From NCBI GenBank assembly GCA_964016885.1, contig OZ024754.1:11842001-11906000 (forward strand): a stretch of 64,000 nt of DNA, given 5' to 3'. This DNA comes from Eledone cirrhosa (taxonomy: Eukaryota). A model generated the notes under the pieces. The model was not told the DNA's origin and ran no database searches. It was given only the letters and a program-made list of their open reading frames with translations. The position numbers were made by a program, and so were the translations under genes. This document shows positions 49,821-50,681 of this stretch, in pieces. The stretch's first letter is position 1. Every line of letters begins with the position of its first letter.

Positions 49821-50681
49821 CTATTGGTAAAAGAATAATTGTTTTGTTAGCATGCTCGTTATACAAGGGACCTGTTTCATTCCATTCATATCGTTATTCA
49901 GAGACTCATATTCGTTGGCAACCATACGATTTACAGAAGTCATGAGTCGGAGAAGTTCATGTTTGCCTCCGTTTTCTTCTAAAACTTTGGCTAACGATTG
50001 TATAAACCAGGATCCATTGGTAGTATGTCTCCATGAGTAAAATCCAGGGACAGTAGAGTAAGCTAAAAGTACATCTGCCCATAGAGGTATCCTGAGAGAC
50101 GTGATACTTTTATATTCACTGTATCTACTAACTTCGGCGTCATGAAGTAGTTCACCACTATCATATTTCAATCCCCGAGAGGCTTGTAGAAAGAAGAGTT
50201 TTGGTTTGCCTGTTAAAGTCGGACATTTATCAGGAAGCAACATCTCAACTAAATTGTCAAATTTTATCTTTCCATTAGTACACCATATTTGGTCATCGTC
50301 TTCACCGTGAGTCAATATAATGCAAACGAAACAATTATAGTTTGCATGATCCATCGAAGCTATATCTTCAAAGATTTGTCTTGTATGTTTCATTGATAAA
50401 TTCTTACGGGAAATTACATTAAAACGTAACGATTCCAGTGCGTGTTTAATCTTGATATGATCGTTATTGGATCCTTGTCGATCAAATAAACCAGTCGATT
50501 TGTCGAATTTTTCATTATTGATTATTAAAGCCAGATTTTTTTTGTTGCGATCCATAATATACCTGGGACTTTCGGACTGACTTTTCCCATTAACTGACGT
50601 TTCACCAACATCTTGAAAATGTAGCGTATGGTTAGGATTTCTCTCGCAATAATGTGTGTTTGACGACAGTCCGTAAACCAT
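49821..50681 (-). CDS. Intronless caspase-3/7-like protein with catalytic Cys replaced by Ser (QASRG)
   Basis: ALIINNEKF, RQGS..D, ILTHG, KPKLFFLQASRG, ADVLLAYSTVPGFYSWR..GSWFIQ, KQVPCITSMLTK; uninterrupted 286-aa ORF. Confidence 0.92.
   Translation of the reverse strand: MVYGLSSNTHYCERNPNHTLHFQDVGETSVNGKSQSESPRYIMDRNKKNLALIINNEKFDKSTGLFDRQGSNNDHIKIKHALESLRFNVISRKNLSMKHTRQIFEDIASMDHANYNCFVCIILTHGEDDDQIWCTNGKIKFDNLVEMLLPDKCPTLTGKPKLFFLQASRGLKYDSGELLHDAEVSRYSEYKSITSLRIPLWADVLLAYSTVPGFYSWRHTTNGSWFIQSLAKVLEENGGKHELLRLMTSVNRMVANEYESLNNDMNGMKQVPCITSMLTKQLFFYQ

Follow-up and report, generated by a model that had tools for sequence, protein, structure and literature searches.

Can a full-length effector caspase that has exchanged its catalytic cysteine for serine be kept as a regulator of its active relatives, or is such a copy an enzyme that has only recently lost its function? 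This question is raised by an intronless, caspase-3/7-like open reading frame at 49821..50681 on the minus strand of a 64,000-nucleotide stretch of the Eledone cirrhosa genome (contig OZ024754.1, positions 11,842,001 to 11,906,000; hereafter the window). A preliminary description of the locus had suggested a retrocopy or duplicate retained as an inhibitor or IAP sink, or else a young pseudogene or a base-call error.

The frame runs from 50681 to 49821 and encodes 286 amino acids with neither stop nor intron. A Pfam search identified a single family, Peptidase_C14, over residues 49-283 (E 4e-58), and the prodomain is short, with 42 residues ahead of MDRN and neither CARD nor DED. Among solved structures the nearest is caspase-3 (E 1.6e-58), followed by caspase-7, and the AlphaFold model (pTM 0.75) matches caspase-7/3 structures (E 1.7e-25). 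As judged by alignment to caspase-3, the copy has kept the catalytic His125 (THG, 50307..50309), the S1-pocket Arg68 (RQG, 50478..50480) and the substrate-binding loop S216-W217-R218 (50028..50036), so that the Arg/Gln/Arg pocket (R68, Q166, R218) is complete. It has also kept the linker Asp181 (50139..50141) within LLHD/AEVS, a predicted processing site (slash) that is identical in the Cys-bearing sister clade. The His-Cys dyad of the QACxG type is incomplete, since the position of the catalytic cysteine is occupied by Ser168 in QASRG (TCT, 50178..50180). The closest Cys paralogues (L002-L004, L006 and L009) use TGT, from which TCT is one transversion away. The preliminary description had reported the QASRG motif with its TCT codon, the single transversion, the His, Arg and linker Asp residues and the intact frame, and all of these were borne out. 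Classified by these residues, the predicted protein is an effector-caspase homologue (C14A) and not an active member of that class.

With regard to the reality of the serine codon, Logan contigs bridged position 50179 in four of four runs with 0 alternative letters, giving TCT and never TGT, and the unitig was unbroken across the codon in every run, as expected of a homozygous site. It should be underlined that the four runs represent at most two samples from one study, possibly of the source animal, and that a single animal may be behind all the reads. The agreement of all four runs nevertheless rejects the suggested base-call error. One of the runs, X1, is RNA: one of its contigs skips three GT..AG introns of the neighbouring CREB3-like gene, which X2 does not, and several intron bins of that gene have zero X1 depth. 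None of the runs in which the sequence was detected is recorded as RNA, and X1 has no library record, its assignment to RNA being taken from the splicing of this neighbour. X1 contigs cover 49702-50712 with TCT unchanged, and this cover is thus RNA; the serine codon is present in RNA, in Logan contigs that carry neither strand nor start. The locus, which the preliminary description had wanted to see transcribed, is accordingly covered in one RNA run, by strandless contigs. The 3' flank (49702..49820, minus strand) lies in the same X1 contig as the serine codon and is likely 3' UTR. Moreover, a 33-mer common to five sister copies reached an X1 depth of 683, against ~90 on unique parts, which makes it likely that one or more sister caspases are co-expressed in the same RNA.

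A search of the genome (3.0 Gb) gave 27 matches from 31 candidates, including nine close, full-length and uninterrupted copies, namely the focal copy and eight paralogues on C1, C3 and C28 to which it is 64-69% identical. Since all nine are uninterrupted, the intronless state is, on these gene structures, a trait of the whole close family. The comparison of intron structure with a parent gene revealed no intron loss relative to the close paralogues, and the C3 caspase with an exon-by-exon match is distant (39-49% identity). The upstream sequence that the focal gene has in common with L029, including the TATA element, scored 75.9, a value reached by 0 of 500 shuffles, and no poly-A tract was found in the 240 nt past the focal stop. 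These two observations point to duplication at the DNA level and not to a fresh retrocopy. The suggested retrocopy is therefore unsupported for the focal copy, 8/8 of its close paralogues being intronless as well, while the entire intronless family may have an ancient retro-origin.

The genome also contains three broken copies or fragments. L029 (C2:360559808-360560016) is a 5' fragment with its promoter region in common with the focal gene, of which it is the closest relative at the DNA level (85%); L028 (C2:112570030-112570191) is likewise a 5' fragment of a caspase; and L030 (C3:223122730-223123680) is a near-full copy with stops and frameshifts in which the Cys is still present. Divergent uninterrupted caspase-like ORFs were seen at C8:43.98-44.89 Mb (L016, L019, L020, L022), C24:4.85 Mb (L023), C27:6.77 Mb (L025) and C17:35.82 Mb (L015). 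Their active-site motifs are odd (SSCCE, NTCQC, NTCQP and QCCRD) and apparently keep the Cys.

The closest named proteins come from Octopus vulgaris, O. sinensis, O. bimaculoides and Argonauta, with 57-67% identity. In a tree of 48 rows, the focal copy lies inside an octopod clade of 30 rows (support 100/100) and is sister to a young clade of six copies from its own genome (support 100/99), and it thus arose by duplication within a family of active caspases. This tree and the conservation counts cover the 41 database proteins except the incomplete P0025, P0026 and P0029. No orthologue of the focal copy above 67% identity was found among the 41 hits from 457 database candidates. A search with shorter candidates gave two matches out of 14, both distant and neither an orthologue, and the exact focal protein sequence was absent from the database searched. 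Of the evolutionary checks that the preliminary description had outlined, dN/dS could consequently be computed on the paralogue branch, but not on orthologues.

The catalytic Cys is present in seven of the nine close copies and in 43 of the 48 rows. Besides the focal copy (TCT) and L005 (AGT), the exceptions are P0036 (QASLG), P0037 (QAALF) and P0042 (EARQG), which are caspase-3-like proteins without the catalytic Cys among the 41 database matches. As judged by their codons, the focal copy and L005 represent two independent Cys-to-Ser changes. That gene conversion had passed Ser from one of these copies to the other was considered and rejected, as TCT and AGT differ and the flanks are unlike. 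L005 differs from L003 at 12 codons, 11 of which are non-synonymous (11/12); its Ser was gained very recently and its frame is intact. The segment C28:80425500-80429800 (L003, L005, L009, L031) is a tandem array of three caspase copies with a period of ~1.66 kb. Its middle copy carries the independent QASRG (AGT) together with a further damaging-looking change, A201P, and in its third copy an internal duplication of 15 codons has produced two QACRG motifs. PMC9389742 tabulates an initiator transcript from squid with QANSV.

Next, selection on the focal copy was estimated with a codon model fitted to six of the nine copies (L005, L008 and L009 left out) over 243 codons, the catalytic codon and the N-terminal 42 residues being excluded. 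The focal terminal branch has a dS of ~0.31 and a dN/dS of 0.25 (profile CI ~0.13-0.48), and a value of 1 is rejected (p=2e-4). In an earlier run with nine sequences one fit did not converge; both runs gave dN/dS values of 0.22-0.26. The focal value does not differ from the values on the other old branches (p=0.28), and the young sister clade has 0.72, which is not different from 1 (p=0.28). Only three of 88 conserved columns are altered in the focal copy (D136N, L141F and C168S), compared with 1-3 of 89 in the seven Cys paralogues. None of the signs of a decayed pseudogene (stops, frameshifts, dN/dS near 1) was found in the focal copy, signs that a very recent loss would not leave either. The suggestion of a young pseudogene copy thus falls on the low dN/dS, the dS and the open frame, and the estimates indicate that the gene has been constrained over most of its history. 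From this constraint and the intact frame it follows that either selection went on after the Cys was lost or the loss is recent; because no orthologue was found, the loss cannot be dated from these sequences.

Under simulated neutral decay with stops only, the frame stayed open with a probability of 0.15 at d=0.05; at d=0.1 this fell to 0.026, and values were lower when indels were included. Ser with an intact frame arose in at most 0.35% of 4000 neutral runs per setting, a figure that overstates the case for retention, since the locus was picked for having Ser. The simulation favours retention, against which the choice of the locus and the precedent of L005 have to be set. The full-length dead paralogue L030 decayed in the usual way, with Cys retained and the frame broken.

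We tentatively propose, at somewhat less than an even chance, that the focal copy persists as a catalytically dead decoy that would damp its active sister caspases. This proposal agrees with the serine codon in all four runs, the RNA cover, the few altered columns and the branch dN/dS of 0.25. Mouse Casp3 C163S is reported to be inactive, is said to fold and bind substrates, and has been suggested to have dominant-negative effects (PMC3002157), and the C163S caspase-3 precursor is reported to be cleaved by active caspase-3 (PMC2621203). It is from these properties, together with a sister copy that is likely co-expressed, that we infer a dampener. Active paralogues would cut the focal protein at LLHD/A, the processed Ser protein would occupy substrates of the sister caspases, and/or half-dead mixed dimers with active paralogues would form, and the threshold for effector caspase activity would rise. 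Several points speak against the decoy: the branch dN/dS is no different from that on other old branches, as an active enzyme with a recent Cys loss would give; L005 is a recent Cys-to-Ser change with an intact frame within the same family; and among the precedents, the best-known decoy among insects has been cited as an enhancer and the anti-apoptotic role of worm CSP-3 is unreplicated.

The decoy leads only narrowly over recent inactivation, which remains a serious, if somewhat less probable, explanation. It holds that an old active caspase became redundant after the expansion of the sister clade and changed Cys to Ser within the last ~0.05-0.1 substitutions per site while still being transcribed. 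The Ser may in that case be fixed, or it may be a null allele that is homozygous in the sequenced animal. That the focal dN/dS is indistinguishable from that of active old branches is what recent inactivation would produce, and the family evidently undergoes birth and death, with three broken copies or fragments (L028-L030) and with no constraint detectable in the young clade. Moreover, L005 shows that Ser can be acquired very recently, 12 codons away from L003, and in the focal copy the N-terminal motif (see below) is gone as well. On the other hand, neutral decay usually brings stops or frameshifts first, the combination of Ser and an open frame being rare in the simulations, and the remaining catalytic and pocket residues are intact. 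The unitig over the codon, unbroken in four of four runs as for a homozygous site, likewise counts against recent loss.

The N-terminus bears on how a maintained dead copy could act. An MD[YF]xD/A motif occurs in 8/8 own paralogues and in 24 of 29 octopod rows, three of the five rows without it being models that start downstream; it is thus conserved in octopod effector caspases, including the Octopus proteins P0002-P0021, and is a candidate Smac-like IAP-binding motif. Cleavage at the motif would expose A-x-P-I (ARPI, AHPI or ALPI) in six of the eight own paralogues L002-L009, a sequence that resembles AVPI, the IAP-binding motif of Smac (PMC12152192). We infer that the octopod motif is cleaved and binds IAPs. 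The focal copy is the only one of the nine close copies without an N-terminal DxxD/A, its diverged N-terminus (MVYGLS..., 50646..50681, minus strand) having no MDY-x-D/A with its predicted cleavage site and IBM-like Ala. One pairwise alignment hinted that the ancestral ATG had been lost and the N-terminus frameshifted; this reading was dropped, since comparison with L007 and L004, anchored on the ATG, favours the same ATG. The loss of the motif weakens the suggested role as an IAP sink, and, if the motif binds IAPs, a sink acting through it is unlikely. Instead, the focal protein would evade this route of IAP capture and would not titrate IAPs by it.

For the same reason we consider it improbable, and clearly less so than recent inactivation, that the copy is a maintained pseudoenzyme that enhances caspase activity, either by titrating IAPs with its pocket or small-subunit N-terminus or by activating partners in mixed dimers, much like CASPS18 of mosquito. 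The evidence for retention is identical to that for a damping decoy, and processed drICE C211A is reported still to bind DIAP2 (PMC2373516), but the same source describes the equivalent neo-N-terminal motif of drICE as required for DIAP2 binding, and the focal copy lacks it. CASPS18, which the preliminary description had named as a natural decoy, is cited in PMC4840389 as enhancing CASPS19 and not as an inhibitor.

The flanks of the gene bear on the origin of the RNA cover. On the minus strand, an Inr-like TCATTC (50719..50724) gives a predicted +1 at 50722, and the first ATG downstream of it is that of the focal ORF. A TATA-like element, TATTTAAA (50746..50753, minus strand), lies at -31 and is also present in the dead duplicate L029; such a TATA at -33..-28 occurs at four of the 215 Inr-like sites of the window. 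A CRE palindrome, TGACGTCA (50784..50791, minus strand), is a putative regulatory site. On the plus strand, a CREB3-like bZIP gene (17454-42771), with seven matched coding blocks and the three introns spliced in X1, converges on the caspase and ends 7 kb from it; nesting of the caspase inside a host intron was rejected on these positions. A CREB3-like gene converges here on a caspase with a CRE palindrome upstream. Just downstream of the caspase (49319-49594), a 73-bp unit that seems to stem from a dispersed repeat is repeated 3.8 times (98% identity), and the first minus-strand AATAAA (49596 region) sits in this array. LINE-type reverse transcriptase/endonuclease pieces lie at 20207-22387 (-), 58255-58953 (-), 11691-12203 and 60211-62582, one of them with a 726-aa frame that combines RVT_1 and then a PHD-like finger.

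It is very improbable that antisense read-through out of a long 3' UTR of the CREB3-like gene accounts for the RNA cover, with the caspase silent or nearly so. The contigs covering the caspase carry no strand, and X1 depths are alike on the neighbour's contig (80.7) and here (88-95), although contig depth cannot rank genes. Such a transcript would have to pass 16 AATAAA; none of the 13 poly-A-signal hexamers checked lies on the plus strand in 50620-50712, and no loose A-tail was seen in X1 at 50712. The contig ends at 50712, 10 nt inside the predicted TATA/Inr start site of the minus strand, and the DNA runs continue upstream, a weak hint from one study. Least probable of all, and hardly credible, is that the Ser protein keeps some activity, as its intact His, Gly and pocket might allow, or that the base is an assembly error, since C163S is the standard inactive caspase-3 (PMC3002157, PMC2621203) and the contigs of all four runs match the assembly.

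Caspase-like decoys are already known, and the focal copy is, by its sequence, a well-supported candidate of that kind. The pseudo-caspase cFLIP-L regulates its paralogue through heterodimers; it is of the initiator type, carries DED domains and is altered at several points of its active site, whereas the focal copy is a short-prodomain effector altered at a single one. Caspase-like decoys of Diptera include CASPS18 of Aedes aegypti (Bryant et al. 2010, as cited in PMC3141678 and PMC4840389). Like CASPS18 in those accounts, the focal copy is an inactive caspase homologue that arose by duplication beside an active effector paralogue. Unlike CASPS18 as cited there, it is alone on its contig, apart from its paralogues, it has lost the N-terminal IBM-like motif, and the role proposed here is not that of an enhancer. 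Mouse Casp3 melody and the engineered C163S alleles (PMC3002157, PMC2621203) carry the same substitution in an effector caspase that is intact in other respects, but they were induced or engineered in the sole caspase-3 gene, and the focal copy is a natural, separate paralogue. The C. elegans paralogues CSP-2 and CSP-3 have been reported to inhibit CED-3, although the anti-apoptotic role of CSP-3 failed to replicate (PMC3591282). According to the same source CSP-3 has no active site at all, and neither protein is a full-length Cys-to-Ser effector copy like the focal one. Finally, the octopod caspase-3-like expansion (Octopus, Argonauta) forms the same clade as the focal copy (57-67% identity), which differs from most of that expansion in being without both the Cys and the N-terminal DxxD/A. 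The literature searched, in which few subscription papers were covered, yielded no description of an effector pseudo-caspase from a cephalopod.

Two independent events in this genome and a third Ser row among the related proteins are the basis for a wider and more speculative reading, which we regard as unlikely, namely that octopods repeatedly turn intronless effector copies into Cys-to-Ser decoys, of which the focal copy would be an old, IAP-uncoupled one setting a family-wide death threshold. A natural full-length effector caspase with this substitution is evolution's version of the substrate-trap mutant that is standard in the laboratory. A recent loss would be an ordinary step in the turnover of a gene family. 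If the copy is maintained, it would point to a regulator inside the octopod caspase expansion and would offer a clean system in which to ask if effector pseudo-caspases damp their paralogues or boost them, a matter in which the precedents from insects and worms conflict.
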